From the IMG/VR virus record IMGVR_UViG_3300033553_000816: a stretch of 64,000 bases of DNA; one strand, 5' to 3'. Positions 3,986 through 52,059 of this stretch are shown here, in pieces. This DNA comes from a virus (taxonomy: Duplodnaviria > Heunggongvirae > Uroviricota > Caudoviricetes). The notes beneath the pieces are model-generated. The model worked only from the letters and a program-made list of their open reading frames with translations. It had not been told where the DNA came from and did no database searches. Made by a program: the position numbers and the translations under genes. Positions within the stretch are counted from its first letter, which is position 1, and each line of letters opens with the position of its first letter.

Positions 3986-4300
3986 TTGGGGGGGTGTTTC
4001 TGTTGGGGTTGTATGGAGTTTGGTAGCTGGTGCTGGAGGGCTGGGTGTACATTATTTTTAGCACTGTTGTTTCTTCTCCTCTCTGGTGTGTATCTCTGTT
4101 GGTTCTACTGGAGTTGGAGTACTGCTTGGTATCTCCCCTATGGTGTGTCCCTACTGGAGTTGGACGACTGTTGGTTATCTCTTGTTTGGAGCTGGAGGAC
4201 TGTTCGGTTATTTGCGGAGGTCCGGTTGGCTGTTTATGAGTCGAACTTACTGGGTTTGTGTTTTCCAATATATGCGTTTTGGTTTGGAGGTTAATGTTAT
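3986..4300. repeat. G/T-rich (top strand) region with about 2.5 tandem copies of a ~45-bp unit (TACTGGAGTTGGAGTACTGCTTGGTATCTC...)
   Basis: Units at about 4104-4149, 4150-4190 and 4191-4230. ORFs 3986..4294 (+), 4030..4239 (+) and 3981..4307 (-) are compositional artefacts (Cys/Trp/Phe/Leu-rich). Confidence 0.6.
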
Positions 4301-4847
4301 GGGCCATATCGATTACACTGCCAGTATTACGGCCACTGCTTCTGTTGATGGGTTATCTACGATATATGGATATCCGAGCATTGGGGGACAGTCGGTGGTT
4401 ATTGCATCAACTGTGGATGGTGAGGTTATTATCGAGGATAATGTTAGGCTGAAAGAATGTTAGGTTGAAGGTAGATGTAAGCTAAGTGGTAATTCTGAGC
4501 TGTATCGGTCTGGCGTTAAGGATGATGCTATAGTAGAAGGTAATGTTATTCTGGGAAGTTGTGATATAAGAGATTATGCTTGTATTTATGGAAATGTTAA
4601 ATTAGAAGGCATTTATGTGTCTGGGAATGGTTCTGTTTTTGGGGAAGCTTCATTGCAGGTCTCAGATATAAACGATATGGTTATTGTTCTCCAGGGTAAT
4701 TGTAAGTTTGGTGGGGCGTCTAGTTTTGATGGCTTAAAGACCCCAGTGGATTTCGTCAATAAGTATGGGAGATTCAACGTTGAGGTAAGGCTTAGTGAAA
4801 ATCAACGAACTGTTATTTTTCTAACTGATGTGTGGGATATGGGGTAG
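4299..4847 (+). pseudogene. Family A member disrupted by an in-frame TAG (4461-4463) and an apparent frameshift near 4560
   Basis: GGAGG RBS at 4286-4290, ATG at 4299 giving MGHIDYTASITATASVDG...EDNVRLKEC* . It then resumes with ...SGNGSVFGEASLQ...NCKFGGASSFDGLKTPVDFVNKYG...IFLTDVWDMG (track ORFs 4086..4463 and 4617..4847). The exact frame bookkeeping around 4560-4620 could not be resolved by eye. Confidence 0.5.
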
Positions 4848-8113: not shown

Positions 8114-10237
8114 TTACCCAAGGAGGTTGAGTAGTTGGTCTCGGTTGACTTTTTGTTGAACGGTTTTTGTGTTGTGTGCTTTAGCCCATAGTTGAGCTAG
8201 TTCTCCCATGGTGAGGCGTGGGCGTTCAATTTCGTCGTAGACGATTTCCCCTACTGTTGCGTCATCGTTTGATGAGATACCTGATGCTGTTGATCCGTTA
8301 CTGGAGTCTATCCATATCATTTTACCTGTTTCTAGGTTAATTGCGAATGGAACTGATTGTGTGGAAGGGGTGGTGGGTTTGAATGCGGTTGTGATGGTGC
8401 GCGGGTCGAAGGGGTCGCCTTTTTTGGCGTTACTTCTTAGCATAGCTCCGGCGATGAAGTCTACGTTTTTCATTGGCCATCCGGACCAGGATTGTACTGT
8501 CATTGCTACCCATTTCGCTTCGGGGTGGGTTGCGCGTAGTTTGTTCAGGTCAACGTCGATGTATTCGGCGGCGGAGTTTCCGGGTGCTACGTTACAATCA
8601 CCGCTGTAGGTTGCCCATTCACGTGAGTGGTGCCATGCGTTCCATGTGCATACGTCTAGTTTTTGGAATTTGTTGTCAAGGATGATAGCACCGATGTCCA
8701 TGTAGCCGTTTGTATCCTGGTTGTTGTTCCAGTGGCCGAAGATGCGGATTGTGTTTCCTTTTCCTACTGGGGTGAGTTCTTGACCTCGGTCTAATACTCT
8801 GTCCGTGGTTGCTGTGTCACGGCGCACAAGGGGGACAGGTTGCTCGGAGATAATAGCGACTGGTTCCTGTGGCGCTGGGGTGTTTTTGAGGGTTTCTTGG
8901 AGTGCGTCTTTGAGCGCTTGGGCGATAAGGGCAAGGTGGGCGGTTTTGATTTTTGTTGTTGCTTTACGGTCAACCATTGTGTTAGTTAGCCCTGCGACAC
9001 GAGTTACCCTTGTGTTATCGTCGTTTGCTGAGATGACACCGTTGTATGCGGAGATGATAGTTGTGGTTGTTGATTGTGGCCCTGTGTTGCGGATCGCTTC
9101 AGCTAGGGTGTTTACTTCTTGTTTGTTGGCGGTGAGGCGTAGGATAGCTACTGCGCGTCGGAGTAGGTTACCTGGTTGGTTTTCTGTTAGGAGTTTAATT
9201 GCTGTGGTTGCGTCACCTGTGTTCATTGCGGTTTCCACTAGGGAGTTGAGGGTGCGGTAGTTGATGTTGGTGTGGATGATATCTACGGCGCGTTTTTGTT
9301 CGGTGGTGAGTGTGAAATCGTAAGGGTGGACTGCTTTCATGATGGTGCGCCAAAGGTTTATACGGGTGATGAGGCTGTCTGCTTTGAAACCTTCGGTGAG
9401 TGCTCCAAGTTGGTTGATGATGACTTTTCGGGCGGGGCGGGAAATTTTGTTCATACGGACAGCGCGTGCGTGACGGTTCGCGAGGGTGTTGACAGTTAGG
9501 GTGTAGTTGTCGTTCCATTTTTCATTTGCGGGTGCTGTGGCTACTGTAAGAATTACTCGTAGGAGCTGGTCTGTGTTGTTACAGGTGAGTGCTGTTGCGA
9601 TGATGAGCTCGTTGGAGTTGAAGTCACAAATAGTGTGAACGGCTTTTATGAAGGATTGTAGGTTTTCACCGTTGCGGGAGTTTTTTGTGATCTCAACGAT
9701 TGTTTCAAGAGTAGGGTGTTGTAGTTCAATTGCGTTTGTGAGTAGGGTACGTTCGTCTTCAGAGAGAGCTATGGGGCGTGTGGTGAGGGCGCTTATGTAC
9801 TCGCGGGCGGTGTTTGCTGCTGTGAGCACTTTTACTTCGCGGGCGTTACGCATCATGTCTTCTAATGGTAGGCCTTCACGGGCGATGGTGGGGTAGTTGG
9901 GTAGGAACTCTCCGGCTGTCCAGTAGTGCAGGATTTGTTCAACTAGAAGAGTGAGTGTGTCTAGTTGTTCAACTTGTTCTGGGAACCCTGGGTAGATTGG
10001 GGTCATATCTCGGTCTGCGCCAACGATGGTGCGTGCGTCTTCAAGCATGTTAGTTAGAGCTTCAGTGCTCATGGTTCGGAGTTCGTTTACATCAACGATG
10101 AATCCTAAGTTAGCCATCTCTACCATTGCGGCGTTGGTGATTTCGGGAGGGGTGCTCTCAGGGTTGGTTTTGTTTGCGCGCACGACAATTCCGTTGCGGA
10201 GTGCGCTGACGCGGAATTCCTGAGTGATTTTAGCCAT
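8114..10237 (-). CDS. Large Thr/Ala/Asn-rich protein with TerD-like C-terminal domain
   Basis: 707-aa ORF. C-terminal ~200 aa (GNTIRIFGHW...DIGAIILDNKFQ...YSGDCNVAPGNSAAEYIDVDLNKL...KWVAMTVQSWSG...NVDFIAGAMLR) aligns by eye to the TerD family pattern (LGWD...DLDASAFLL..NGKV...HTGDNRTGEGDGDDE.IKIDL...KIIFVVTI...FGQV..AFIR). Confidence 0.6.
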   Translation of the reverse strand: MAKITQEFRVSALRNGIVVRANKTNPESTPPEITNAAMVEMANLGFIVDVNELRTMSTEALTNMLEDARTIVGADRDMTPIYPGFPEQVEQLDTLTLLVEQILHYWTAGEFLPNYPTIAREGLPLEDMMRNAREVKVLTAANTAREYISALTTRPIALSEDERTLLTNAIELQHPTLETIVEITKNSRNGENLQSFIKAVHTICDFNSNELIIATALTCNNTDQLLRVILTVATAPANEKWNDNYTLTVNTLANRHARAVRMNKISRPARKVIINQLGALTEGFKADSLITRINLWRTIMKAVHPYDFTLTTEQKRAVDIIHTNINYRTLNSLVETAMNTGDATTAIKLLTENQPGNLLRRAVAILRLTANKQEVNTLAEAIRNTGPQSTTTTIISAYNGVISANDDNTRVTRVAGLTNTMVDRKATTKIKTAHLALIAQALKDALQETLKNTPAPQEPVAIISEQPVPLVRRDTATTDRVLDRGQELTPVGKGNTIRIFGHWNNNQDTNGYMDIGAIILDNKFQKLDVCTWNAWHHSREWATYSGDCNVAPGNSAAEYIDVDLNKLRATHPEAKWVAMTVQSWSGWPMKNVDFIAGAMLRSNAKKGDPFDPRTITTAFKPTTPSTQSVPFAINLETGKMIWIDSSNGSTASGISSNDDATVGEIVYDEIERPRLTMGELAQLWAKAHNTKTVQQKVNRDQLLNLLG

Positions 10238-18980: not shown

Positions 18981-19439
18981 ATGGCTGAAACCGCTTCGAT
19001 TAGAGACTCCTCAGTGGTTAGAGATTCTGGTCGAGTTGAAGGTAATGCAATAATCGCTAACGGTACTGTCGTTGGTGATCAAGCATCAGTAAGCGGGCAC
19101 GCTACTGTTAACTGGTCAGACATTATGGGGCAAACTAAAGTTAGTGGTAATTCGAAAATTACGAACTCTATTTTAACTGGGGCGTGCGAAGTTTACGGTA
19201 ACGCCCGTATGGATGATATCTTTGTTAGAGGAACTTCATGTATTTTCGGGAACGCTAATTTACGTAACCATTCCCGGTCGAGAATTGTGCTAGAAGGAGA
19301 ATGTAAGTTCGGTGGGCATGCTAATTTTGAGGGGTTAGAAAACTATGAAGATTTCGTTAAAAAATATGGTGAAGATAAAATTAAAAGAGTAAACCGGTAC
19401 GGGATTGTTTTAACCGATGTTTGGGATATGGGCGCATAG
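18981..19439 (+). CDS. Family A beta-helix-repeat protein (close paralog of 35270..35752)
   Basis: MAETASIRDS...ECKFGGHANFEGLENYEDFVKKYGEDKIKRVNRYGIVLTDVWDMGA. Confidence 0.8.
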   Translation: MAETASIRDSSVVRDSGRVEGNAIIANGTVVGDQASVSGHATVNWSDIMGQTKVSGNSKITNSILTGACEVYGNARMDDIFVRGTSCIFGNANLRNHSRSRIVLEGECKFGGHANFEGLENYEDFVKKYGEDKIKRVNRYGIVLTDVWDMGA

Positions 19440-19485
19440 CTAAGCGTCGCCTTATCTAAAATGAAAGAGTTGTATTTTCTTCTTA

Positions 19486-19698
19486 TTACCTTGCGGTAAC
19501 CATTCTATCTTCAATTTCATTTTCCTCCTGGAATTCGTTCCAGCCTTCAGCCATGAGTTCAGCTCGGATAAGATCCGGCTCATCCTGACACATCTGTTGG
19601 AAATGTGAGACTTTATGGTCAGCCAGAGCAAGAGCGTAACCGTATTCTCTCGGGTCAGATCTTCTAGCTTCAGGTACAGACATTCTATATTCACTCAT
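19486..19698 (-). CDS. Small acidic hypothetical protein
   Basis: 70-aa ORF. Its start overlaps the stop of the upstream minus-strand gene (ATGA). Confidence 0.4.
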   Translation of the reverse strand: MSEYRMSVPEARRSDPREYGYALALADHKVSHFQQMCQDEPDLIRAELMAEGWNEFQEENEIEDRMVTAR

Positions 19699-19970
19699 TT
19701 TGTTCCTCCGGAAAAAGTCAACTCAGTGGGGCAGGGCCAGGGTCGCTTACAGTCCCTACAGAGCTTAGCGTCGTTATCAGAAGGCCCGTGTCGCCCCCTA
19801 ACGGCTTTAAGGGCTATCTCAGAACGCGGGTAAGGGCTTTCATTATCGTGACGCTCGCGGGCTTCCTCATAGGTAAGCTCCATGTTACCGCTAAGCTGCC
19901 AGTCACAGCCCCTACAGAACCAACCGTCTGCATGCTGTTGACCATAAATACTAATCTCATGGGTTTTCAT
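19695..19970 (-). CDS. Small Cys-rich hypothetical protein (possible Zn-binding)
   Basis: 91-aa ORF with CRGCDW...CRDCKRPWPC. Confidence 0.45.
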   Translation of the reverse strand: MKTHEISIYGQQHADGWFCRGCDWQLSGNMELTYEEARERHDNESPYPRSEIALKAVRGRHGPSDNDAKLCRDCKRPWPCPTELTFSGGTK

Positions 19971-20049
19971 TTTAACCTCCGGGATAGGGGTGACTATTTA
20001 TTATGTATCATATCATGTCAGACAGCAGGTTGACAACTCTATTAGATAA

Positions 20050-20355
20050 CTAACTTCTGTGTTGTAGACGCGCGAGCTTCTGATCTATACGGTTTAGTTC
20101 CTCAGCGTGAACCATAATTGTGGTCCGGTATAGTGCTTTCTGGCGGTCCTCATACGCATCTTGTTTGCGGAGACCTTTGAAGCCGCCATTGGCGAAGAGC
20201 CAGAGGGCCCACAGCGCGCCGAAGCCAGCGGTGATTGTGGAACCAATGAGCAGACCAGATTCGGCGTTGCCGGTGAGGGTTAGTACCACTGAGAGAACGA
20301 GAACGATGCCGACTATGATTGAGAAAACTACGGTTATGGCCTTGAAATCTTTCAC
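20050..20355 (-). CDS. Small membrane protein
   Basis: 101-aa ORF with two hydrophobic helices (ITVVFSIIVGIVLVLSVVLTL ; GFGALWALWLFA). Confidence 0.45.
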   Translation of the reverse strand: MKDFKAITVVFSIIVGIVLVLSVVLTLTGNAESGLLIGSTITAGFGALWALWLFANGGFKGLRKQDAYEDRQKALYRTTIMVHAEELNRIDQKLARLQHRS

Positions 20356-20514
20356 GGGTTACATCCTTAACGGTTGTTTGGTTTGCCCTTATGAGAATAA
20401 GCTTACGGCATTATCCGCGTTTTAGCAACCCGTATGGCATAAATCGTCGTAACTGGATTTTTGTTACAAGTTTTAGGTTAAGAAAGATGCGGGGTCTTCA
20501 GCCGCGCATATGAA

Positions 20515-20919
20515 TTAACCCTGATTGCGAATATATTCGATCACATTCTTCTCGGAAACATCACCAATGGTTGAGCAGAAGTAGCCGTTAGTCCATAATA
20601 TTTGTTTGTTTTTCCAATAGAAGTTTTGTAGATGCGCCGCTTCACGTTCCCATATGTAATGTGTGGTGAGTTGCTTCATCCTACGTACTACTTGCTCAAT
20701 GGAGAGAGTAGGTTTGAATGTAATAAGTAAGTGGATGTGGTCTTTATCTGTGTTCATTTCAATTATTTTAAAATCAGATTTTCCTTCAGCGACTCTGAAA
20801 GCATCCAGAACAACCTGCTCAATACCTATGAGTGCTTTTTTGCGGTATTTCGTTGAGAAGATAATATGGTAACGTAAACTTGTTTTCGCATGGGCGATAG
20901 ATTTATATTCATGAGTCAT
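20515..20919 (-). CDS. tnpA: IS200/IS605 family transposase TnpA (Y1 HuH)
   Basis: 134 aa, MTHEYKSIAHAKTSLRYHIIFSTKYRKK...HIHLLI. The HuH motif and size are typical of IS200-like TnpA. Confidence 0.85.
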   Translation of the reverse strand: MTHEYKSIAHAKTSLRYHIIFSTKYRKKALIGIEQVVLDAFRVAEGKSDFKIIEMNTDKDHIHLLITFKPTLSIEQVVRRMKQLTTHYIWEREAAHLQNFYWKNKQILWTNGYFCSTIGDVSEKNVIEYIRNQG

Positions 20920-20973
20920 GTGTCATCACCGTTTTCTACCGATATAGTTAACTAGCATATCGGACAAGGGGCG

Positions 20974-22206
20974 GTGTTAACTATGGGTAATAAAAATGCT
21001 CGTATTGCTGCTACTATGCGCGCTACACAAGTGCGCCGCCAGTCCCAATCTTGTCGTGTTTTTCAATTAAAGATCCAATCGAACTCTTTGAATCAGCAAC
21101 AGCAAGTGGCGTTGAAAATGCTTTTTGTGGAAGCTAAATGGTTATATAATCATGCCCTATCCCAAGGTATCACTAAATATGTGCCTGGTAAAACCGTGGA
21201 AGTGAGAAATAAAGAAGGCAAGTTCGAGACCCGCGATCTTACTGTTATTGGTTCACAGATGAAGCAATCTGTCCTCGCAAACATGCATTCAAGTCTCCGT
21301 GGCCTCGCTTCACACAAAAAAGCTGGTAGGCGAGTTGGTTCGCTCAAATATATTTCCCAATACACTTCAGTTGATTTGAAACAATATGGGACCACATATC
21401 GCATCAACAAGAACCGTGTGCGTATCCAAAACATCCCAGGTTGGGTAAAAACACGTGGTTTACACCAATTAGAAGGTTGGGAACTCGCAAACGCTAAACT
21501 TATGAAGAAACCAGATGGTTACTATTTACATGTGACAGCTTTCAAAAACAAAAATGACATCCCAAATACTTTCATACCAGGTACAAAGATAGGGCTAGAT
21601 ATGGGATTAACTACTCACATCACATTGAGTGATGGGACAAAGATTTCCGCAACAGTTGGAGAAACTGACCGTTTAAAACGCTTACAGAAGAAACTCAGTA
21701 AGCAAATTAAAGGGTCAAACAATTATTTGCGGACGCGAACGCTACTACAGCGGGAGCAGCAGAAAAACACCAACCGAAGAAACGATAAAGCCAACAAGGT
21801 AGTGCATGACATCCTCTTAAACGAGCGAATATATATGCAAGATGAAAACCTTATCAGCTGGCGCAAAACCTTCGGCGGCACAAAACAACACGGGTCCATT
21901 CTTGGTCGTGTGAAAAACAAACTCATCAACCATGACAGAGTAACAGTGTTACGAAAAAACTCACCAACCACAAAAATGTGCGAGTGTGGACGTAAAAACA
22001 CTCATTCTTTAAAAGAACGCACCTACTCATGTGCTTGTGGTTATACATTAGACCGTGACATACATGCGGCTCGAAACATGGTGAGGTTATCAATACCTGT
22101 GGAACGCAGGGAATCAACGCTTGTGGAGAACGAGTCAGACTGGTTAGCGCTCAGCGCGAAACAGCGTCGTTCATTGAAACAAGAAGCGTCTAGTTCTTTA
22201 GACTAG
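20974..22206 (+). CDS. tnpB: TnpB (OrfB) RNA-guided endonuclease-family protein
   Basis: 410 aa. RuvC-I IGLDMGL, C-terminal zinc finger CECGRKNTHSLKERTYSCACGYTLDRDIHAARNM (CxxC...CxxC plus RuvC-III). Confidence 0.85.
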   Translation: MLTMGNKNARIAATMRATQVRRQSQSCRVFQLKIQSNSLNQQQQVALKMLFVEAKWLYNHALSQGITKYVPGKTVEVRNKEGKFETRDLTVIGSQMKQSVLANMHSSLRGLASHKKAGRRVGSLKYISQYTSVDLKQYGTTYRINKNRVRIQNIPGWVKTRGLHQLEGWELANAKLMKKPDGYYLHVTAFKNKNDIPNTFIPGTKIGLDMGLTTHITLSDGTKISATVGETDRLKRLQKKLSKQIKGSNNYLRTRTLLQREQQKNTNRRNDKANKVVHDILLNERIYMQDENLISWRKTFGGTKQHGSILGRVKNKLINHDRVTVLRKNSPTTKMCECGRKNTHSLKERTYSCACGYTLDRDIHAARNMVRLSIPVERRESTLVENESDWLALSAKQRRSLKQEASSSLD

Positions 22207-22265
22207 ACGTAGTTCACTGAACGTGCTATCATATATTGTAGGACTAGAGTGAGGTGAAACTGCTG

Positions 22266-22877
22266 ATGGTTTTTATAGCTAAGACCGCTGATGTGGATAG
22301 TCGCGCTCGCATAGAAGAAGATGCGCGAGTTGAGGGGTACGCTACTATTCTTGTCGGAACTGTTCTTGAGGGCTCAGCTGTTGTTAAAGATGACGCTGAG
22401 GTTAGTTGGGTTGCTATGTCTGGTTCAGCTAGAGTCGAAGGTTCCAGTAAAATAGATGGAGGGACTGTTGTGGGCTCCGCACGTGTGAGCGGCAGCGCAA
22501 TCGTTATTTACTCCGATTTACGAGACTCAATTATTATTGAAGGTAAAGCTTCAGCTATTACCTCTGAAATGAGTGGTAATGCGCGGGTTAGCGGTAACGC
22601 TCGAATTGAAAATACTTCTGTGAGAAATTCCTCTGAAATTTATGGTGACGCTGAGCTGAACAACATCGAAGTTAACGACAGCTCACGCATTTTCGGTAAC
22701 GCCCGACTGGTGAGCGTGGTGGACTATGTTTACCTTAAGGGTAATTGTAAGTTCGGCGGTAACGCTAATTTCGATAATCTATTTAATTTTGAGGATTTTG
22801 TAGCGAAGTATGGCGCAGATAAAGTTAGTCGTTACAAATATGGTTTCGTTCTTACTGATGTTTGGGATATGGGGTAA
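22266..22877 (+). CDS. Family A beta-helix-repeat protein
   Basis: GAGGTGA RBS then ATG at 22266 giving MVFIAKTADV...NCKFGGNANFDNLFNFEDFVAKYG...LTDVWDMG. Confidence 0.8.
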   Translation: MVFIAKTADVDSRARIEEDARVEGYATILVGTVLEGSAVVKDDAEVSWVAMSGSARVEGSSKIDGGTVVGSARVSGSAIVIYSDLRDSIIIEGKASAITSEMSGNARVSGNARIENTSVRNSSEIYGDAELNNIEVNDSSRIFGNARLVSVVDYVYLKGNCKFGGNANFDNLFNFEDFVAKYGADKVSRYKYGFVLTDVWDMG

Positions 22878-22881
22878 AGAT

Positions 22882-23452
22882 ATGGTTTCTGTTGCTGACA
22901 CAGCTACCGTGGATACCACAAGTGTATTGAGTGGTTTAGCGCGAGTTGAGGATTATGCTAAAGTCTCAGAAAGTCATGTGGTGCAATTCGCTGTTGCTCG
23001 CGGTTCAGCTTCAGTCAAAAACTCCTCCCTGCGAGGCCATGCTGTGGTCTCCGGCTCATGCTCCCTTGAAGGTTCATCCATCCGAGGGGGGAGCCACTGT
23101 TGAGGGCGCAGCTGTTCTTTATTATGTGATCATGACAGATGAAGCGTATGCTGGTGAAAAGTGTACTGTTCGTAAATCTACTTTAAGGGGTGAAGCTAGG
23201 GTGTATGGCCAGGCTTACATATCTGATATAAAAGTTTATAACAACTGTCATATTTTCGGTAAAGCAAACTTACGTAATCATTTAGTTTCTGGTTTTAATA
23301 TCTCCTTAAGGGGTGAATGTAAGTTCGGAGGGGCAGCTAACTTCGAAGGGTTGAAAACTTTTGGTGACTTCATAAAGAAGTACGGTTCAGATAAAGTGCA
23401 TGTCGTAGATACCCAGAGAGTTGTTTTGACTGACGTTTGGGATATGGGGTAA
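22882..23452 (+). pseudogene. Family A member split by a +1 frameshift in a G6 homopolymer (23086-23091)
   Basis: ATG at 22882 giving MVSVADTATV...EGSSIRGGSHC* (stop at 23103). The C-terminal part continues in the +1 frame (...GGATVEGAAV...ECKFGGAANFEGLKTFGDFIKKYG...LTDVWDMG). Removing one G restores a contiguous protein. Confidence 0.6.
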
Positions 23453-23454
23453 AA

Positions 23455-24207
23455 ATGGGTTACGGCGGTACGTTCGATAATGAAGGTAACTTATTTACTG
23501 ACAGTATCGTGAAAACAGCGCATGTTGATGATAGTTGTTTCATGTCGGACTCTAAAGTCCTGGATAACGCAACGGTTAAAGGTGCCGTAAGGGTGGAGAA
23601 GTCTAATTTACGAGATAACACTGTTGTTTCCGGCAGAGCCCTAATCAAAATTTCTACGCTAACCGGGGCCACTCAAGTCTCAGGTGATTGTTTAGTGGAA
23701 GAATCTTTCTTACGTAACTATTCGAAAGTTGAAGATAAAGCACAGGTCATTCAGTCTTCTTTGTTCAGCGATGTTTCTGTTTCCGGTAACTCTCAGGTAA
23801 CTAACTCTGAGCTGCTGGGTTCTAATGTATTCGTTAAAGATAACGCTAAAGTAATGATGAGTTCCTCATACGGGAATAACGTTTCCATTTCAGATTCCGC
23901 TGTAGTTTCCCAGTGTGTTATTAGCGAAAGTTATGTTAAAATTTATGGTTCAGCGGAGCTTCACAGAGTAAATGTTAAAGGGGTTTGTCATATTTTTGGT
24001 AACGCTGTGGTGTCGCTAAATATAGGTAAAGACACCTATATATCCTTAGTGGGTGACTGTAAGTTCGGTGGGGGCGCTCGGTTAGATTTATTCACCACTG
24101 TTGAAGAGATCATTGAACGTTACGGTAAAGAAAAAGTTAAAACGTCAGAAGAGGGTAGAAGTAAAACTTTGGTAGTGACTTTAACAGATGTTTGGGATAT
24201 GGGGTAA
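23455..24207 (+). CDS. Family A beta-helix-repeat protein (long variant)
   Basis: ATG at 23455 giving MGYGGTFDNEGNLFTDSIVKTAHV...DCKFGGGARLDLFTTVEEIIERYG...LTDVWDMG. Confidence 0.75.
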   Translation: MGYGGTFDNEGNLFTDSIVKTAHVDDSCFMSDSKVLDNATVKGAVRVEKSNLRDNTVVSGRALIKISTLTGATQVSGDCLVEESFLRNYSKVEDKAQVIQSSLFSDVSVSGNSQVTNSELLGSNVFVKDNAKVMMSSSYGNNVSISDSAVVSQCVISESYVKIYGSAELHRVNVKGVCHIFGNAVVSLNIGKDTYISLVGDCKFGGGARLDLFTTVEEIIERYGKEKVKTSEEGRSKTLVVTLTDVWDMG

Positions 24208-24209
24208 AC

Positions 24210-24851
24210 ATGGCTTACATAGCAGATACCGCTTGTGTTGATGATATGACAACTTTACATGGTGATAAAATTCGTGTTGAAGATTATGCGCGTTTAGAGA
24301 GCTGTAATGTAGAAGGTTCCGTAGTTGTTGAAGACCACGCTCATCTGGTTGGCGTTAAACTCCAGCAGCGCGCTTATGTCTCAGAGCGAACTACGGTTGT
24401 TCGGGGTGTGATATTAGGTGAAGCTAAGGTTCGTGGTTATTCTCGCATCAAGGACTGTATTATCGCAGATGAAGCTACAGTTGAAGGTAGCTCTGTTTTG
24501 GAGAACAGTAGCGTTGAGGGGTTTTCTCGCGTATCTGGTAATGCCAAAGTAACGGGTTCTACTGTTGACGGGAATGTACATATTTTTGAGAACGCTACAG
24601 TATTGAATATAAGTGTTTTTGGTGACGCACATATTTTCGGGAAAGCAAAATTAGAATGCCCTAAAATATTATTAGGTAGGTTCGATAGCCTACAGTTCCG
24701 GGTATCTATTAGAGGAGGTAAGTTCAGTGGTAACGCTAACTTTGATGGCCTCAAAACGCAAACAGATTTTGTTAACAAATACGGTAAAGATAAGGTAACT
24801 ATAAGCGATCAGGGTAACGTAACGTTAACTGACGTATGGGACATAGGATGA
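24210..24851 (+). CDS. Family A beta-helix-repeat protein
   Basis: ATG at 24210 giving MAYIADTACV...KFSGNANFDGLKTQTDFVNKYG...LTDVWDIG. Confidence 0.8.
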   Translation: MAYIADTACVDDMTTLHGDKIRVEDYARLESCNVEGSVVVEDHAHLVGVKLQQRAYVSERTTVVRGVILGEAKVRGYSRIKDCIIADEATVEGSSVLENSSVEGFSRVSGNAKVTGSTVDGNVHIFENATVLNISVFGDAHIFGKAKLECPKILLGRFDSLQFRVSIRGGKFSGNANFDGLKTQTDFVNKYGKDKVTISDQGNVTLTDVWDIG

Positions 24852-24933
24852 TGCTTTCAACCGGTTTAACTCACCGTAGTTCGTTAGAGCATACTATACC
24901 CTTATTACATAACACCAAGGAAGGTACAATGCA

Positions 24934-25620
24934 ATGGCTTTTGTAACCAGCTCCCCTCTAATCAACTCGGAATTCAAAGTTGAATTAGTTGAACATGGTA
25001 AGGAAACGTATGTAGGTCCCGACGCTAAGGTGGTTGGAACTAACTTATTCGGTAAAGCCCGCGTTGAGGACAGCGCTTGGGTTTTTGATTCAGAAATTTT
25101 CGATAATGCTGTTATCAAAGAAGACGCTGTTGCTGAAAAATCTATGCTTCACGACTCTGTTATCATTTCAGGGTGGGCCGAGTTATCTTTAGTCGAGGCG
25201 ACAGGGTTTGTAAAAGTTAACGGGAACGCTAAAATCATCAAATCCCATCTTTGGAATAACGCACAGGTAGAAGACTACGCTTTAGTTAAATCGTCTATCA
25301 TACAAGGCAACGCACATTTGAGTGGAAAATCAAAAATTATACACGGTGGGGTTAGTGGTAACGGGAGGATCTACGATCAAGGTACCGCGAATGCTGTGAT
25401 TGTTACTGATGACAGCTGTGTTTTCGGGCATGCTAATCTTGAAGGTAACATTATTGCCGGAAAACAAGTTGTTTTAACTGGTAACTGTAAGTTCGGCGGG
25501 ACAGCTTCTTTCGAGGGGATAGCGAACCTGGACGATTTTATCTACAAATACGGTAAAGATCATGTTGAGATGGTAAAGAACAATATTTTCCTCAAAGACG
25601 TGTGGGACATGGGCTCTTAA
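24934..25620 (+). CDS. Family A beta-helix-repeat protein
   Basis: MAFVTSSPLI...NCKFGGTASFEGIANLDDFIYKYG...LKDVWDMGS. Confidence 0.75.
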   Translation: MAFVTSSPLINSEFKVELVEHGKETYVGPDAKVVGTNLFGKARVEDSAWVFDSEIFDNAVIKEDAVAEKSMLHDSVIISGWAELSLVEATGFVKVNGNAKIIKSHLWNNAQVEDYALVKSSIIQGNAHLSGKSKIIHGGVSGNGRIYDQGTANAVIVTDDSCVFGHANLEGNIIAGKQVVLTGNCKFGGTASFEGIANLDDFIYKYGKDHVEMVKNNIFLKDVWDMGS

Positions 25621-25702
25621 CCAATAAAGGCCACCTTCAAAAGTTGCTTCTGCTTGAATGTCATGATATAATTATAAGATATATATTATTTTAGGAGTAA
25701 AC

Positions 25703-26041
25703 GTGACTGATAGTTCTGGATTACATAGGCAGCAAGCCCTGACGGAGATAAGTGAAGTGATTTATAATGCTTCAGATAACGACGAGGGGACTCACAACGT
25801 GAAGCTAAGCGAAGCTCGGGTATATGCTCACCATGTCCTTGATGCCGGTTACAGGAAACCCTCTCCTCATGTTGTTAACAGTATAGGTGAACTAAAAGAC
25901 TATATGACTATTCTCCCCCACGGTTCGATGCGGCCCCTCTGGTTTTATCGAGGTGAACTTTTTCTTCCCGGTGTGTATGAAGCTGTTCCCGCTGGTCGAA
26001 CAACTTTCCCAGCGACAGTTCTCACTGACGGTAGCCGTTAA
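25703..26041 (+). CDS. Hypothetical protein
   Basis: 112-aa ORF with a GTG start and a GGAG RBS just upstream. No family A/B motifs. Confidence 0.4.
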   Translation: MTDSSGLHRQQALTEISEVIYNASDNDEGTHNVKLSEARVYAHHVLDAGYRKPSPHVVNSIGELKDYMTILPHGSMRPLWFYRGELFLPGVYEAVPAGRTTFPATVLTDGSR

Positions 26042-26078
26042 GACCAGCTTCTATCTGAAAAACATGAGGTAGTTTCAT

Positions 26079-26552
26079 ATGGATTATTCAAAAGACCTTT
26101 CCGGTTCACCCCAGGGCGATAAAAACCAGATTATAGGTAAAGACGCTCAGGTTGAGTATTCCGCTAAGATTGAGAGATCCATAATAAGAGGGTGCGCTCA
26201 TATTGGAGGTAAAGCACAAATTGAATCTTCTTTAATCACCGATAACTGTTCTGTTCTGGATGCGGCTATTGTGATTGAATCTGAGTTGCGTGGCTTCTCA
26301 AAAGTTTATGATAAAGCTTTCATATATGGCATATGGATGGAAGATAACTCATGTGTTTTCGGGGATGCTTATTTGGTAGCTGCTTTCACCGATGAAATGT
26401 TCATTACGCTTAAAGGTGGTTGTAAGTTCGGCGGGTCAGCTACTTTCGAAGGGTTAAATACTTTTGATGACTTCGTTAGGAAGTATGGTGAAGATAAAGT
26501 TGCCCTAGTCGAAGGTGAAATTGTTTTAACTGATGTGTGGGATATGGGGTAA
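26079..26552 (+). CDS. Family A beta-helix-repeat protein
   Basis: GAGGT RBS. MDYSKDL...GCKFGGSATFEGLNTFDDFVRKYG...LTDVWDMG. Confidence 0.8.
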   Translation: MDYSKDLSGSPQGDKNQIIGKDAQVEYSAKIERSIIRGCAHIGGKAQIESSLITDNCSVLDAAIVIESELRGFSKVYDKAFIYGIWMEDNSCVFGDAYLVAAFTDEMFITLKGGCKFGGSATFEGLNTFDDFVRKYGEDKVALVEGEIVLTDVWDMG

Positions 26553-26560
26553 CTAGAAAT

Positions 26561-27157
26561 ATGGTAAATACATTATACACTCCCGCTGAATTTATAGCTG
26601 AAATAGAAGAGAAAACAGCTGACGGCGATATAGGCCATGAGGACCGCAAAATACTTCTACGAGACTTAAGTGAAATTGTAAGCAACATCAACGACAACCC
26701 GGACCCCGCATGTACCCCTCTGAAAATAAGAAACTACGGCTCTAATTTACTGATGACTAGCAGAAACTATGTAAGAGAGTACTCTATTGTAGGTGGCAGC
26801 ACCACGTTAAGGTATGAAACTTGGTATGATCAAGGTCTGTACCACAGGGGGAATGATAAGCCCGCTAAAATTGCTCGCAATGAGAATGGTGTCATCATAG
26901 AAGAAGAGTACTGGGTTCGAGGTAAATTACATCGTGATGGCGATAAACCAGCTCGGGTTGAATATTACAGCAGCAACAAAAACGTGAAGATGGAGTCGTG
27001 GTTCTTTACTGGTGCCCAACGAAGAGATGGTGACAAGCCTACTACTGTACATTATTATGAGGAAGGTAATATAGAAACCTTAAGATGGAATTACTATCGG
27101 GATGGTAAAAAACCACTCCGTTTAGATTATGACATGAATGGCAAGATCGTATCTTAA
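26561..27157 (+). CDS. Family B MORN-like repeat protein (only plus-strand copy)
   Basis: ATG at 26561 giving MVNTLYTPAEFIAEIEEKTADGDIGHEDRKILLRDLSEIVSNINDN, followed by repeats ...HRGNDKPAKIARNENG...EEEYWVRGKLHRDGDKPARVEYYSSN...RRDGDKPTTVHYYEEG.... Confidence 0.8.
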   Translation: MVNTLYTPAEFIAEIEEKTADGDIGHEDRKILLRDLSEIVSNINDNPDPACTPLKIRNYGSNLLMTSRNYVREYSIVGGSTTLRYETWYDQGLYHRGNDKPAKIARNENGVIIEEEYWVRGKLHRDGDKPARVEYYSSNKNVKMESWFFTGAQRRDGDKPTTVHYYEEGNIETLRWNYYRDGKKPLRLDYDMNGKIVS

Positions 27158-27282
27158 CTTATTTTTAAGACAGTCAGATGCTAAGAATTACTTAAATAAA
27201 TTTACCTTACCCAACGTCGATCTGTTTAAGTAATCTCTGTACGATATTCTTTGTGTATTTCAATACCAGGGATAAATAAACT

Positions 27283-27780
27283 ATGGCCAGGTTCACGGAG
27301 CATATCCTCATGGATGAGGGGGCTAGTTTATCTAACGACGCCCAAGTGTCCGCTATCTCCAGACTGCTTGACCATGCGCAGGTTAGTGGAACCGCTGTTA
27401 TTAAAGGGCTTTCCTGGTTAGAGGGAAGAGCCCATGTTTATGGAACGGCACTGCTTGATGGGGTTATTATGAGCGAGGATGCCACTATTGGGGATGATGC
27501 CTGTGTCACAGGGGGTAACTTTAGCGGTTACTCCCGCGTTTATGGGAACGCAACAACACAAAACGTCAGCGCTAAAGGTAACTCAAGTGTATTCGGTAAC
27601 GCTAGTTTATGTAGCGACTATATTAAAGTTCAGTTAGCTGGTGGCTGTAAATTCGGTGGTCACGCAACTTTTGATGACCTATTAGACATAGATGATTTCA
27701 TTAACAAATACGGCACAGGGAACATTGAGATTATAGGTCGTTCTTTAGTTATCTTAACTGACGTTTGGGACATGGGCTAA
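27283..27780 (+). CDS. Family A beta-helix-repeat protein
   Basis: MARFTEHILMDEGASL...GCKFGGHATFDDLLDIDDFINKYG...LTDVWDMG. Confidence 0.75.
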   Translation: MARFTEHILMDEGASLSNDAQVSAISRLLDHAQVSGTAVIKGLSWLEGRAHVYGTALLDGVIMSEDATIGDDACVTGGNFSGYSRVYGNATTQNVSAKGNSSVFGNASLCSDYIKVQLAGGCKFGGHATFDDLLDIDDFINKYGTGNIEIIGRSLVILTDVWDMG

Positions 27781-27781
27781 G

Positions 27782-28402
27782 ATGGCCAAAATCACGGGCG
27801 AGCACACCCCTAAAACTAACTTGGATATGTGGGCCATTTCACCTAACGCTAACGTTGATGTAGTAACGCGGCAGCATCTTAAAAATAAACAAGTATATAT
27901 TGGAGGTAACAGTCATTTAACTGTTGTTATGATAAATGGTGACGTGGAAATTGACGATGACGCTCGAATAAACGTTTCTTACCTTAACGATAACGTCAGA
28001 GTTAATGAGCAAGCAACTATTCACGGTTCTGTTTTATCGAACAGCTCGTATGTTCATGGTCAGGCAACTTTGTACAGTAGCCGCATCTGTGATTCTTCGG
28101 AAATTTTTGGTAACGCCATATTAAGAGACAGCGTAGTTACGGAAGAGGTTATCATCTACGGTAACGCTGACATAAGAAAAATCACCGTTTCAGGATGTTC
28201 GCATATTTTTGGGAAAGCTAAACTGATAAATATGTTATCCCGGAATTACAGTATAATCTTAGAGGGTAGTTGTAAATTTGGTGGCTGGGCAGACATAAGC
28301 ACTTTGACTACCTTTGAAAGCTTCGTTAAAAAATACGGTAAGGATAACGTTAGAGTAGAAACAAATAAAATTGTGTTAACTAATGTTTGGGATATGGGGT
28401 AA
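27782..28402 (+). CDS. Family A beta-helix-repeat protein
   Basis: MAKITGEHTPKTNL...SCKFGGWADISTLTTFESFVKKYG...LTNVWDMG. Confidence 0.75.
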   Translation: MAKITGEHTPKTNLDMWAISPNANVDVVTRQHLKNKQVYIGGNSHLTVVMINGDVEIDDDARINVSYLNDNVRVNEQATIHGSVLSNSSYVHGQATLYSSRICDSSEIFGNAILRDSVVTEEVIIYGNADIRKITVSGCSHIFGKAKLINMLSRNYSIILEGSCKFGGWADISTLTTFESFVKKYGKDNVRVETNKIVLTNVWDMG

Positions 28403-28450
28403 ACTGACAAAAGGGGCGCGCCCTTACTTCCACGACTGACATGTATTTAC

Positions 28451-28960
28451 TTATTGTTTTATAGGCCGGTAGTAGCTGTCCGGGAGTTTAGGGAAGTTCC
28501 CACCGCGAAGGTTACGTTCCGCGAACATTCTAATAACATCTGAACCCACTCCACGTTGGCCTTGGTTGATACGATTAGCGTCTCTTCTTATCAGCTCATC
28601 TATCTCCACTGGGAAGTCTTCGATACGGAGTTGTACTTTTCCTTTGAATTCTTTCGCTATGTCAACTAGCTGCTGTAGGGAATTTAGATTTAAGTTAGTG
28701 TCATCAACTACAACAGAAAACCCAGCCTTAAGAGCTTCGCGGATTTTCCCATGCTGTATTTTAGTTATGTTATCTTCCATTCGGGAAGCTTTGTCGCCAG
28801 TTCCAAACCAGTATGAGCCGTATGTTTCATATCGAAGGTTGTCTCTGTTGACTCGGGTTCGAGTTAAAGAGCTCTCAGATAGCCATTTCTTCGCCCAGGT
28901 GCTCTTACCGGACGCTGGAAGACCCCTAGTTAATACAAGAGTTTGTTGTTCGTTATTCAT
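28451..28960 (-). CDS. Polynucleotide 5'-kinase-like P-loop kinase (T4 Pnk kinase domain only, no phosphatase domain)
   Basis: LTRGLPASGKSTWAKKW (Walker A), NRDNLR, SVVVDDTNLN and RINQGQRGVGSDVIRMF match the T4 PseT/Pnk N-terminal kinase domain pattern (G.PGSGKSTWA; NRD..R; ISDTNLN; R.TKAVP.DVLR.M). Confidence 0.7.
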   Translation of the reverse strand: MNNEQQTLVLTRGLPASGKSTWAKKWLSESSLTRTRVNRDNLRYETYGSYWFGTGDKASRMEDNITKIQHGKIREALKAGFSVVVDDTNLNLNSLQQLVDIAKEFKGKVQLRIEDFPVEIDELIRRDANRINQGQRGVGSDVIRMFAERNLRGGNFPKLPDSYYRPIKQ

Positions 28961-29049
28961 ATTGCGTTACCTCACCGAGTTGTTTCCTACATGTTATATA
29001 AGTAATCCTAGCGGTTTCTATTTTTTTATGATACATTTAATCAGAAGAT

Positions 29050-29556
29050 ATGAGGTTTTATATGACATCGCCCGCAGGTAACCTTTTCCAAGACCGGTCT
29101 TATGCTGCGCCTGGAACTGAGATCTTCAACACCCAACTGTTCGTAGATGCACTTGTTAAAGACACGGCGAGCGTTTTTCGAAGTGAACTTTTCGGCGCTT
29201 GTGAAATTTCAGGTCATGCGCGGGTTGAGAATTCTTTCATCTCCGGTATAGCTAAAATCAAAGATGACGCTGAGATTTATGGTTGCGAAGTGGCTGAATG
29301 TGCCAAAATTTATGGTCAAGCTAAAGTCCGCGATATTAACGTTTCCGATAAAGTACATATTTTTGGAAGAGCTAAACTCTTCAACCGTTTACAGAAGAGC
29401 GCTATTTTCCTTAAAGGGGAATGTAAGTTCGGCGGGACCGTTAATTTCGATAATTTGTTAACCACTGAGGATTTTGTTGATAAATATGGAGCGGACAAAG
29501 CTATTTTAACTGCCGGGGGTATTGCCCTAACTGATGTTTGGGATATGGGAATTTGA
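29050..29556 (+). CDS. Family A beta-helix-repeat protein
   Basis: ECKFGGTVNFDNLLTTEDFVDKYG...LTDVWDMGI. An alternative start at ATG 29062 (MTSPAGN) is preceded by GAGGT. Confidence 0.75.
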   Translation: MRFYMTSPAGNLFQDRSYAAPGTEIFNTQLFVDALVKDTASVFRSELFGACEISGHARVENSFISGIAKIKDDAEIYGCEVAECAKIYGQAKVRDINVSDKVHIFGRAKLFNRLQKSAIFLKGECKFGGTVNFDNLLTTEDFVDKYGADKAILTAGGIALTDVWDMGI

Positions 29557-29570
29557 GGAGGGTTTAAATT

Positions 29571-30080
29571 ATGACAATATCTGATAGCGTAGAGATGGAC
29601 GGGATAAGTAGATGTGATGAAACGGCAACTGTTGATGGTAACGTTATTGTTGAAGCTAGCGATATCTTAGATAACGCACATGTTTATGGCAACGCTAAAC
29701 TCTCCGGTGCGTCCGTTAAAGGTAACGCACATGTTTGTGGGAATACTATTTTCACGTCAAGTAGAGCTGAAGATGACGCTCGCGTTTACGGCAACACAAA
29801 ATTAGTTGGTGTCGCAGTTTTAGAGAACGCACAAGTTTATGAAAACGCTGATTTGGTATCAATCATTATTGAAGGTAACTCACGGGTTTTCGGTAACGCA
29901 AAGTTAGAGAGTAAAAGTAGTAGTTTAATTATCGCGCTTAAAGGTTCCTGTAAGTTCGGCGGCACAGCCAGTTTCGACGGGTTGGACACGTATGATGATT
30001 TTGTTAATAAGTATGGGGAAGAGAACGTCCAAGAACGCTTCCGTGGCTTGAATCTGATTGACGTGTGGGATATGGGTTAA
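29571..30080 (+). CDS. Family A beta-helix-repeat protein
   Basis: MTISDSVEMD...SCKFGGTASFDGLDTYDDFVNKYG...LIDVWDMG. Confidence 0.8.
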   Translation: MTISDSVEMDGISRCDETATVDGNVIVEASDILDNAHVYGNAKLSGASVKGNAHVCGNTIFTSSRAEDDARVYGNTKLVGVAVLENAQVYENADLVSIIIEGNSRVFGNAKLESKSSSLIIALKGSCKFGGTASFDGLDTYDDFVNKYGEENVQERFRGLNLIDVWDMG

Positions 30081-30211
30081 TTGTACCGATAATATAGCAT
30101 ATGGGAAGTAATTATGAGAAAGTTACTTAACCACTACAACCTTTTTGGCTTCTCAGGTGTCTAACACTATGAAGGTAAAAATATCTCAATCAATAAAGTA
30201 GGTAATATATA

Positions 30212-30811
30212 ATGAATTTCTCTGATGGACTCAAGAACTTATCAAACAATGTAGCTGATGACTACTCAGCCAATGCGCCAGATAACTCCGCTAAACTTAT
30301 TAGTAAAGCACGTAGGAACCGCACAGTTTGGGGCTCCAAATTAGGGGCTGCCACTATAGCGGGAGTTGCTACATTAGCTTTCGGTGGACCGGCAATGGCG
30401 GCGGTTATTACGGGTGACACCCCGGCTGACACAGTAGTGGCGGCTACGACTACTACTAGCGAAGCGCCAGCTTCTTCTGACGCGGCTTCAACTGACCCGA
30501 CGAGCGAAGCACCAGCGGCAACAACTGAAACTCCAGACCCGACCACTCAGGCTCCTGTTCCAGCTGCTGACATCCCAGAGGCAACAACCGAAGCTCCGGC
30601 ACGTGTAGTACCGGCAACCCCAGCAACCCCAGCAAACCCAGCGGTACCTAACAGCGCAGGTGTTATTGACCTGACAGGTGGCGTCATAGGGGGTACCTAC
30701 GATGACGATGATGATGAGTACGAAGATCATGAAGACGCATATGACGACGATGATGAGTACGAAGATCATGAAGAAGACGAGTACGAAGATCATGACGAGT
30801 ACGACGACTAA
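30212..30811 (+). CDS. Low-complexity membrane-anchored protein: TM helix, Thr/Pro/Ala-rich linker, acidic C-terminal repeats
   Basis: WGSKLGAATIAGVATLAFGGPAMAAVI (TM), then TTTTSEAPASS...PATPATPANPAVP, then tandem YDDDDDEYEDHEDA / YDDDDEYEDHEEDEYEDHDEYDD at about 30700-30808. Confidence 0.5.
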   Translation: MNFSDGLKNLSNNVADDYSANAPDNSAKLISKARRNRTVWGSKLGAATIAGVATLAFGGPAMAAVITGDTPADTVVAATTTTSEAPASSDAASTDPTSEAPAATTETPDPTTQAPVPAADIPEATTEAPARVVPATPATPANPAVPNSAGVIDLTGGVIGGTYDDDDDEYEDHEDAYDDDDEYEDHEEDEYEDHDEYDD

Positions 30812-30884
30812 AATACAAATAAGCCCTCAGCTGTTATGCTATAGTTGTTTTTATCAAAAGACAACTAAGAACGGTTTTTAGCTT

Positions 30885-31289
30885 ATGAATAATTTAACTG
30901 CTTGTGTTAATTCCTTTACAGTTGGTCGCTCACCAGAGCCTATCCAAATTTTCGTTGTTGACTCTGACGGGGGTAATATCGAAGAGCTTTTAGGGTGGTG
31001 CGAAGGAACTTTGAGTGCCATTAGTATCGTCCCAGGTGGCAAACCTGGTTCTCGTGTATATGGTCCGGATATAAGTGTCTACTATCACGATCCTAGCCAT
31101 GAACGACGGGTTAAAAAAGTAGTTGGCCTATCAGCAGGCCCGCGAGGTAAAGACTGGTATTCGTTCCAGAAGGACTTCGGCGCAGAACCAACTGCTGTCC
31201 TAGTTAAAAGAGTGAACCGTAAAGAGAACACGGCTTCAGTCATCCCGGAGTACGTATCTGATTTACGTAGACAAGGCTATGATCTTTAG
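30885..31289 (+). CDS. Hypothetical protein
   Basis: 134-aa ORF with an ordinary amino-acid composition. Confidence 0.45.
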   Translation: MNNLTACVNSFTVGRSPEPIQIFVVDSDGGNIEELLGWCEGTLSAISIVPGGKPGSRVYGPDISVYYHDPSHERRVKKVVGLSAGPRGKDWYSFQKDFGAEPTAVLVKRVNRKENTASVIPEYVSDLRRQGYDL

Positions 31290-31435
31290 TAGTCACATTT
31301 GTGTGTCTTTTATATGAATTTGGCACAAAGTAACATCTGCGTGACTCTTGAAGCCTCTTTTGCCTCGCAGTTTAGTTGAAAATGAGTTCAAAGTATGCTA
31401 AGATAATTTCAAAATCCTAACAGAAAGATTAAAAT

Positions 31436-32572
31436 ATGCAATTCAGTATTGGGTTAACCCTACTTGTTCTCGCGGTTATTATCGCGATCCCGTCCTTCAT
31501 TGTTATGCGCAAGTCAGCTAAAGACTTAATGACCGCTACGGTTGAAGAGGCCAAGTTGTCCGAAGAGACTGCGCGTATTGAGGATGAACGCAACTCTCGT
31601 CAACGCAACTCTCGTGATAGCTATTCCAGTTATTCTACCTCTAACCCTAGTTCAAGTTCTTCGAAGAAGCGTAACTCGCCTACTACTATCCTAACTAACA
31701 CGCTGAAGGCTGCTAAGTTCGGCCTTCTGACAAGTGCCGCGCTCGGTTTTCTTAGTTTAGTTTTCATTCTCCCGGCGATGTTCTACACTCAGGATGTGGG
31801 AGAATCTAAGGTTCAGGTTTCGTGGACTGGTGACCTTATTGGTCAGACCACAGAGACGGGTCTTCACTTCAAAGCTCCTTGGGTTAATGTAAAGACGTTC
31901 GACATTCGTAACAACCTGGTCGCTTATGTCGCTGATGGAACTACTAACTATTCGGGTAATAAGACAACTGGACCGCAGGTTACTTTCCAGGACCGCGAGG
32001 GTGTGACTGGCAACATGGATATTACTTTGCGTTATTCGCTGGCACCTGACAGTGTTCTTGCTATTTACTCGGACTTCCGAACTCAGGATGCGTTTGTCAC
32101 TCGCGTTATCTCAGAGGGTATTCGCGCTGAAGCGCGTCTAGCTCCGTCCACTAAGAACACCATTGAGGTTTATAACGACCGTCAGGGTGTAGCGCAGGAC
32201 ATTTGGAATGGTCTTGAAACCCGATGGGGGGACCTTGGTATTATTATTGAGGATGTTGCTGTTCAGGAAATCCGTTACTCCCCTGAGGTTATTTCACGGT
32301 TCGATGACGCCCAGTCTGCCCGTATCGCTATTGATAAGGCTGAGGCTGACAAGGAAGCCGCTCTAGTTCAAGCAGACACAGCTGTCATCCAGGCTCAAGG
32401 CCGGGCTGACGCTCAGGTTGTTGAAGCGCAGGGGCAAGCAGAATCTAACGACATCCTCACGCAGAGCTTGTCAGAGGAAATTCTAACTCAGCGTTACATT
32501 GATGCGCTACAGACAGGCACAGTGTTTGTTGTTCCTGAGGGTTCAACCCCGTTCATCACAGCAAACAAGTAA
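31436..32572 (+). CDS. SPFH/band-7 (stomatin/prohibitin/HflK/C-like) membrane protein
   Basis: N-terminal TM helix (LTLLVLAVIIAIPSFIV), Ser-rich linker, then an SPFH-like core (VQVSWTGDLIGQTTETGLHFKAPW...ITLRYSL...VISEGIRAEARLA...IIIEDVAVQEIRYSPEV...AIDKAEADKEAALVQADTAVIQAQGRADAQ). Confidence 0.6.
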   Translation: MQFSIGLTLLVLAVIIAIPSFIVMRKSAKDLMTATVEEAKLSEETARIEDERNSRQRNSRDSYSSYSTSNPSSSSSKKRNSPTTILTNTLKAAKFGLLTSAALGFLSLVFILPAMFYTQDVGESKVQVSWTGDLIGQTTETGLHFKAPWVNVKTFDIRNNLVAYVADGTTNYSGNKTTGPQVTFQDREGVTGNMDITLRYSLAPDSVLAIYSDFRTQDAFVTRVISEGIRAEARLAPSTKNTIEVYNDRQGVAQDIWNGLETRWGDLGIIIEDVAVQEIRYSPEVISRFDDAQSARIAIDKAEADKEAALVQADTAVIQAQGRADAQVVEAQGQAESNDILTQSLSEEILTQRYIDALQTGTVFVVPEGSTPFITANK

Positions 32573-33129: not shown

Positions 33130-33545
33130 GTGTAGCAACTTATTCCGATATTCGTAGTATAAAATGAAAATAGTATGATAGGATACTAATGAGATTAAGT
33201 GAATACGCCACCAAACATGGTATACAGTACCGTACAGCGTGGAACCCTGCCTACACCTCACAAGAATGTAGCAAGTGCGGCTGGTTATCCGAAACAAACC
33301 GCAAAACACAAACAAATTTCCAATGCACAAAATGTGCTTGGACTGGTCACGCGGACGTTAACGCGGCACGAAACATTTTGGGACGTTCCCAGAATGGTGC
33401 CGCATGGTTATATGTTAAACGTGATATTATCCGCGAGCGCCTGCTCGTGCGATACTCTGAGAAAAACACTCAGAGAACGCCTTCAACAGTAAGGCTAGCT
33501 GATACTCCCCGCTCACGCGGGAAAGTAGCCAGCTTAACTTAATTC
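33130..33545 (+). mobile_element. Miniature internally deleted IS607-family element (left end + right end only)
   Basis: 33130-33245 is about 85% identical to the left end and tnpA 5' region of the IS607-like element at 62929-63045 (GTGTAGCAACTTA...GATAGGATAC.AATGAGATTAAGTGAATACGCC). The embedded ORF fuses the first 19 TnpA codons to the last ~98 TnpB codons. Confidence 0.65.
33189..33542 (+). pseudogene. tnpA(N-terminus 19 aa)::tnpB(C-terminal Zn-finger/RuvC-III) fusion remnant
   Basis: MRLSEYATKHGIQYRTAWN, identical to the start of TnpA 62988. It joins to PAYTSQECSKCGWLSETNRKTQTNFQCTKCAWTGHADVNAARNILGRSQ, the TnpB C-terminal signature. Confidence 0.7.
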
Positions 33546-47066: not shown

Positions 47067-47068
47067 CT

Positions 47069-47923: not shown

Positions 47924-47925
47924 TT

Positions 47926-49298: not shown

Positions 49299-49300
49299 GA

Positions 49301-52042: not shown

Positions 52043-52059
52043 GTTAGGTTCCTCTCTTT

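Follow-up and report, generated by a model that had tools for sequence, protein, structure and literature searches.

The beta-solenoid gene array and its broken member

The window, that is, the whole 64,000-nt stretch of DNA analysed here, carries a long array of related genes. An all-against-all comparison of its open reading frames (ORFs) grouped 30 beta-solenoid proteins, all encoded on the + strand from 2517 to 41008, and a gene at 4299..4847, disrupted by a TAG codon and missed by the ORF filter, brings this family (Family A) to about 31 members. The proteins are 140–250 aa long and differ in repeat number. They share a conserved N-terminus (M.Y.ADTA.VD...ARVE) and end in an invariant-rich C-terminal domain of ~55 aa (CKFGG.A.F.GL.T.EDFV.KYG.DKV...LTDVWDMG), which matched no Pfam family. 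The N-terminal two-thirds gave weak Pfam matches to LbH, hexapeptide, bactofilin, and YdcK-solenoid models. PF18836 scored 25.5 against a gathering cut-off of 30, and PF25084 28–45 against 54; every match to YdcK, bactofilin, and EIF2B-LbH stayed below its gathering score, and the sole family to reach its cut-off was Hexapep_GlmU, which came out just above it in a few paralogs.

The array is tightly packed, such that the terminal codons of one gene (TGG GAT ATG GGG TAA) give a GGGG Shine–Dalgarno-like element to the next. At Family A junctions, for example 22866–22884, 23441–23457, and 24196–24212, the ATG of the next gene lies 1–7 nt past the stop codon.

The gene under study begins in the same manner. 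The GGGG and TAA stop of its upstream paralog (22266..22877) occupy 22871..22877 on the + strand, forming a Shine–Dalgarno-like element 8 nt before its own ATG, and a comparison of upstream contexts at 22 family starts showed that this GGGG-TAA-ATG layout matches that of the neighbouring members. From this ATG, a frame-0 ORF of 73 aa runs over 22882..23103 on the + strand (MVSVADTATV...SSIRGGSHC). It codes for an N-terminus typical of the family (MVSVADTATVD...ARVEDYAKV...) plus about four solenoid rungs, until a premature TGA (23101–23103) closes it four codons past a run of six G at 23086..23091 (context CCGAGGGGGGAGCC). The frame-0 reading across the break is ...TCC ATC CGA GGG GGG AGC CAC TGT TGA, so that the run, the longest homopolymer within the gene, fills two glycine codons. 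The original prediction had placed the end of this ORF directly after the G6 run, as the sequence bears out.

In the +1 frame, no stop codon intervenes between 22940 and a TAA at 23450–23452, and the reading is ...GGATVEGAAVL...ECKFGGAANFEGLKTFGDFIKKYG...LTDVWDMG. Its part past the break (23087..23452, + strand; ...GGATVEGAAVL...ECKFGGAANFEGLKTFGDFIKKYGSDKVHVVDTQRVVLTDVWDMG) supplies the other solenoid rungs together with the C-terminal domain conserved in the family (CKFGG..F.GL.T..DF..KYG.DKV...LTDVWDMG). Deleting one G from the run yields an uninterrupted protein of 189 aa with the junction peptide SSIRGGATVEGAAVLYYVIMTDEAYAGEK, and adding two G yields one of 190 aa. The frame can be rescued only by +1 (or −2) decoding; the −1 frame is closed.

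Family similarity continues across the break in the +1 frame

We mapped family similarity onto the reading frames by tblastn with all paralogs. Similarity lay in frame 1 over 22873–23097 and in frame 2 over 23051–23449, and this was the sole frame switch inside a family unit within the window. On a leave-one-out family HMM, the repaired protein reached 185 bits, as against 49.6 bits for the N-terminal and 145 bits for the C-terminal fragment, which places it within the range of intact members from outside the window (113–227 bits). Judged by these sequence scores, the repaired protein is among the better independent members on the family profile, and the homology on each side of the break is above chance. 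These results uphold two further statements of the original prediction, namely that the family-typical C-terminal half continues in the +1 frame and that removal of a single G restores a family-like protein of 189 aa.

The position of the break could be narrowed down by alignment. The repaired protein aligned gap-free across the junction with all 21 other members in the alignment (P0002 and 20 paralogs from the window), as well as with its nearest outside relative, P0025, an intact protein of 190 aa from ERR10493341 that is 44% identical to it (junction residues SSIRGGATVEGAAVL in the repaired protein and SSVKGAARVEGDVLL in P0025). At the conserved G.A.V.G.A positions, the +1 frame supplies Ala and Val, where frame 0 supplies Ser and Cys. 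The gap-free junction and the matching residues on conserved positions indicate that the break sits in the G run itself and that a G5 run, read as GGG GGA (Gly-Gly), is the simplest ancestral state.

Structure prediction agreed with the alignment. AlphaFold2, run with the family alignment, modelled the repaired protein as one continuous solenoid with 17-residue rungs (mean pLDDT 81); 10-residue blocks from residue 41 to 90, including the junction, had pLDDT values of 93–95. The model thus supports a predicted solenoid fold for Family A, and its rung length equals that of the YdcK repeat model PF18836 (17 residues). A Foldseek search of the model against the PDB recovered generic solenoids only, at E values of 0.046 or higher. 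In the sole pair examined, the repaired protein and P0025, the length difference corresponds to a 17-residue block, i.e., one modelled rung, which suggests that whole rungs may be gained or lost between family members.

Relatives of the family in public data

Among INPHARED phages, no match was returned at the DNA level (megablast, blastn) or by tblastn with the repaired protein, nor did a megablast search of 20000–32000 against PLSDB plasmids give one, and a scan with the family alignment detected no Family A relatives in IMG/VR, GTDB species representatives, or JGI metagenomes. A word-indexed protein search retrieved only the broken ORF itself and one wastewater protein, 41% identical. An exhaustive profile search uncovered about 20 Family A members outside the window. 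The only relatives reside on short metagenomic contigs, from wastewater ERR2607436 and ERR10493341/ERR10493343 (L005–L008, L002/L003). On these contigs, orthologs of other window members are 63–81% identical and the gene order is rearranged, pointing to a fast turnover of the family. For the broken gene itself, no ortholog was found among the outside members, the best match being the 44% identical P0025, which is at paralog level. For the comparison with orthologous loci of related genomes that had been proposed as a check of the original prediction, public data thus offered no ortholog of the broken gene.

The locus itself is represented in public records by a 165-aa ORF (22955..23452, + strand), called as protein P0001 on a 202,758-bp contig (NCBI and JGI) and in Logan. 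It begins with 44 residues of out-of-frame sequence, and none of NCBI, JGI, and Logan calls the 73-aa ORF of the N-terminus. P0001 should instead be entered as a frameshifted pseudogene, or else as a protein of 189 aa whose record notes the frameshift. The exact products of a G5 allele (189 aa) and a G8 allele (190 aa) were both absent among ~15 billion public proteins.

Genomic surroundings

Inside the array, upstream of the paralog at 22266..22877, lies an IS200/IS605-type pair at 20515–22206, consisting of tnpA (Y1 transposase, − strand) and tnpB (+ strand). The nearest relatives of the TnpB protein, only ~45–50% identical over most of their length, derive from Synergistaceae and Fretibacterium MAGs, Pseudoclavibacter, and a Bifidobacterium plasmid. 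A serine-recombinase-like “transposase” (phrog_6620) is encoded at 62988–63560, with a shorter paralog ~30 kb away at 33189–33542. A 115-nt stretch upstream of the two copies is 91% identical (33130–33244 and 62929–63043), and the sequence likeness suggests that these may be copies of a repeated mobile element.

The window also contains a second tandem family, of 25 MORN_2-like proteins, 24 of which are encoded on the − strand at 46449–62528 and one at 26537–27157 (+ strand). Several alignments of this family pass through a stop codon at 61653–61655 and through a same-frame boundary at 58203–58205; judging from these alignments, the family may also contain truncated copies.

Between 4000 and 10000, the window displays an extreme asymmetry between the strands, with a GC skew of +0.3 to +0.48 and an AT skew of about −0.4, along with a higher GC content and G/T-rich ORFs. 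A 707-aa ORF at 8114–10237 (− strand) has a match in phrog_33734 and shares 47% identity with a Mycobacterium phage WXIN protein. This protein and an SPFH protein have their best matches in actinobacterial phages (41–47% identity), and PHROG matches include a polynucleotide kinase and a “transposase” of the serine-recombinase type. From this gene content, we infer that the window is probably part of a large phage or of a mobile element resembling one.

A probable slippage insertion in one redundant paralog

The G run differs from those of its paralogs in length. The 31 family genes contain 14 G5 runs, about eight of which are in-frame GGG GGN (Gly-Gly) pairs; such pairs occur in several intact paralogs, and the sole G6 of the family is the frame-breaking one. 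The tract is thus best described as an ordinary Gly-Gly G5 run plus one base. At the DNA level, the locus has two hallmarks of a frameshifted pseudogene: intact homologs lack the interruption and their likeness to this gene carries on past it in another frame, and the lesion is present in the DNA, as contigs of two sequencing runs carry G6.

We consider it probable that a single G was recently inserted by slippage into this Gly-Gly G5 run, truncating one redundant paralog to a 73-aa stub. Replication slippage would have added one G to an ordinary run, turning GGG GGA into GGG GGG A. Ribosomes starting at the ATG at 22882 would then stop at the TGA ending at 23103 and release a solenoid stub lacking the C-terminal domain, and the C-terminal 120 codons would no longer be decoded from the native start. 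The event appears to be recent, since nothing else in the gene has decayed, and it seems to be tolerated owing to the high redundancy and fast turnover of the family. The frameshift leaves ~350 untranslated nt before the next start, which could conceivably have a polar effect on the genes that follow.

A second member of the family is also disrupted. The gene at 4299..4847 (+ strand) contains an in-frame TAG at 4461–4463, through which 23 paralog HSPs read, and the same TAG is found in a Logan contig (L009) from SRR13628066. Reassignment of TAG was rejected as an explanation for this gene, as TAG terminates 18 of the 93 ORFs of the window. Apart from these two genes, all Family A members, both in the window and among the ~20 outside it, are single ORFs. 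A second member with a nonsense codon fits a birth-and-death family, in which at least two of about 31 copies would be dead and a very large, almost unique tandem family is losing members. Such a loss fits a rapidly evolving, redundant gene family, and its mechanism is an ordinary one.

We infer from these observations that the mutation went from G5 to G6, that function was lost, and that switching is not selected for. No ortholog of the gene occurs in public data, so that the ancestral G5 and relaxed selection are presumed, and a functional gene that is decoded by slippage or that switches would equally be expected to be free of secondary decay. Of the three options in the original prediction, whose title stressed slippage or phase variation, recent pseudogenisation, with a putative loss of function, is the one favoured by the evidence, namely a single lesion, no further decay, and a second nonsense-bearing member.

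Alternative explanations

Of the alternatives, a reversible phase-variable tract fares best, though we regard it as unlikely. In this scenario, polymerase slippage toggles the run between G6 (OFF) and G5 (ON), so that expression of the paralog is bet-hedged. The tract does lie inside the ORF, a one-base change flips the frame, the gene is otherwise undamaged, and the gene content of the window is partly phage-like. Moreover, homopolymers of at least 6 bases in phages T2 and T4 have been reported to mutate reversibly at raised rates and were termed contingency loci (2025 preprint, PMC12633550, which also treats the T4 rIIA homopolymer tract). By this liberal threshold, however, only the OFF state (G6) qualifies, and the ON state (G5) falls short. 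The polyG tracts of Fletchervirus, as cited in that preprint, are longer (7–11 G) and lie in receptor-binding genes.

The distribution of G runs further argues against this scenario. Runs of at least six G occur five times in the window, compared with 19.7 ± 5 in dinucleotide-preserving shuffles, a roughly four-fold depletion, and no C6 run exists within the window. The tract is hence neither enriched in the window nor common to related genes, since no other family member has a G6. Other long G runs are a G7 at 3988–3994 and G6 runs at 4893–4898 and at 32226–32231, the last inside the SPFH gene. Both sequencing runs have the same G6 consensus, in contigs that by their nature cannot display minority reads, and neither a G5 nor a G8 allele turned up in the public protein search described above. 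The description of the tract as a classic contingency locus therefore finds no support, given an ON state of only G5, the depletion of G runs of six or more, and a tract that amounts to a Gly-Gly G5 run plus one base.

A bolder version of the same idea, which we put forward as a speculation with little chance of being correct, is that, in a large genome of a mobile or phage-like kind, the G5/G6 tract serves as a short but working contingency site that reversibly switches one gene in a diversified array of ~30 beta-solenoid genes. If so, the recurrent in-frame GGG GGN runs of the family would act as joint low-rate switches that vary which paralogs a population expresses. The finding would gain weight only if reads showed true G5/G6 switching.

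It is similarly doubtful that the true sequence is G5, the gene being intact and the sixth G an artefact of sequencing or assembly. Homopolymers are a classic site of indel errors, and here a single-base change restores a perfect gene. We nevertheless recovered G6 from Logan re-assemblies of two separate runs, which makes an assembly error unlikely. Contig SRR13628066_270669 (2583 nt) corresponds to window 22025–24607 and contig SRR13628065_31563 (1753 nt) to window 21445–23197; both are 100% identical to the window, so that 21445–24607 is covered without a difference, both read G6, and neither breaks at the tract. This support comes from consensus contigs, which hide minority G5 reads, and the two runs may share one DNA preparation. 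Other Logan contigs from SRR13628065/SRR13628066, of 8.7 kb, 3.0 kb, and 2.8 kb, are likewise 100% identical to the window, indicating that the reads are accurate, and the second lesion of the family, the TAG, is a base substitution, unlike a homopolymer error. The sequencing-error option of the original prediction thus loses most of its ground with the agreement of the SRR13628065 and SRR13628066 assemblies.

Programmed recoding appears even less plausible. It would entail either a +1 shift on GGG_GGG or transcript slippage losing one G, giving rise to both a 73-aa and a 189-aa product. The site itself is slippery, as the P-site tRNA-Gly could re-pair perfectly on GGG GGG when shifted by +1; the G run resembles a Shine–Dalgarno sequence, and both halves of the gene are undecayed. 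In contrast, the site has none of the stimulators of +1 shifting (an A-site codon that is rare or a stop, an upstream Shine–Dalgarno sequence at the right spacing, or a downstream RNA structure). The codon after the run, AGC, is a common one (12.2 per 1000). A stretch of 141 nt that spans the site and extends downstream of it had a predicted fold no better than that of shuffled sequences (MFE z-score −0.27), and Rfam gave no match over 19400–24500. A conserved frameshift in homologs was not found either, the other members in the window and the ~20 outside it having no frame switch. Transcriptional slippage in bacteria normally needs long A/T runs, typically of 8–9 or more, and the present run consists of six G only. 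Two further candidates were rejected: a prfB-like shift at the UGU UGA that ends frame 0, where the tRNA cannot re-pair in +1, and a −1 frameshift, the −1 frame being closed. The programmed +1/−1 slippage of the original prediction is thereby left with a closed frame on one side and, on the other, a shift devoid of stimulator, RNA structure, and conservation.

Hardly any likelihood attaches to a functional split gene, in which the 73-aa stub would be kept as a useful product alongside a C-terminal fragment initiated internally: the native start and Shine–Dalgarno-like element of the N-terminal fragment are intact and public records list the long +1-frame ORF (165–168 aa) as a gene, but the split would cut the solenoid mid-way where the AlphaFold2 model is continuous across the break, the 165-aa ORF opens with 44 out-of-frame residues that bear no family similarity, all other members lack this architecture, and by eye no Shine–Dalgarno-like motif precedes the internal in-frame ATG at ~23132. 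Promoter and terminator scans around the locus gave matches at chance level only.

Comparison with known systems

The N-terminal two-thirds of Family A bear a weak Pfam likeness to solenoids of the YdcK-type/left-handed beta-helix and bactofilin-like kinds, from which the family differs in its C-terminal domain, one without a Pfam counterpart.

Among recoding systems, the prfB-type +1 frameshift takes place at CUU UGA C with an upstream Shine–Dalgarno sequence. The broken gene is similar in that its downstream part lies in the +1 frame and in that a G-rich Shine–Dalgarno-like sequence is present. It differs in that its shift site lacks a stop or hungry codon as well as any spacing logic, and in that neither conservation nor an RNA structure is seen.

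PolyG/polyC contingency loci are known in Campylobacter, Neisseria, and Haemophilus. The present tract shares with them a coding-region G tract whose length sets the frame. Unlike them, it is much shorter (G6, with an ON state of G5), is not enriched, and is not common to the paralogs.

A parallel to our preferred reading, a slippage insertion into a Gly-Gly run, is offered by Streisinger-type homopolymer frameshift mutations, such as those at the run hot spots of T4 rII. The broken gene departs from these in being a fixed consensus state seen in one genome only. In common with them, it has a single-base insertion in the longest mononucleotide run of the gene and a stop codon soon after, and the change would in principle be reversible by the same slippage.
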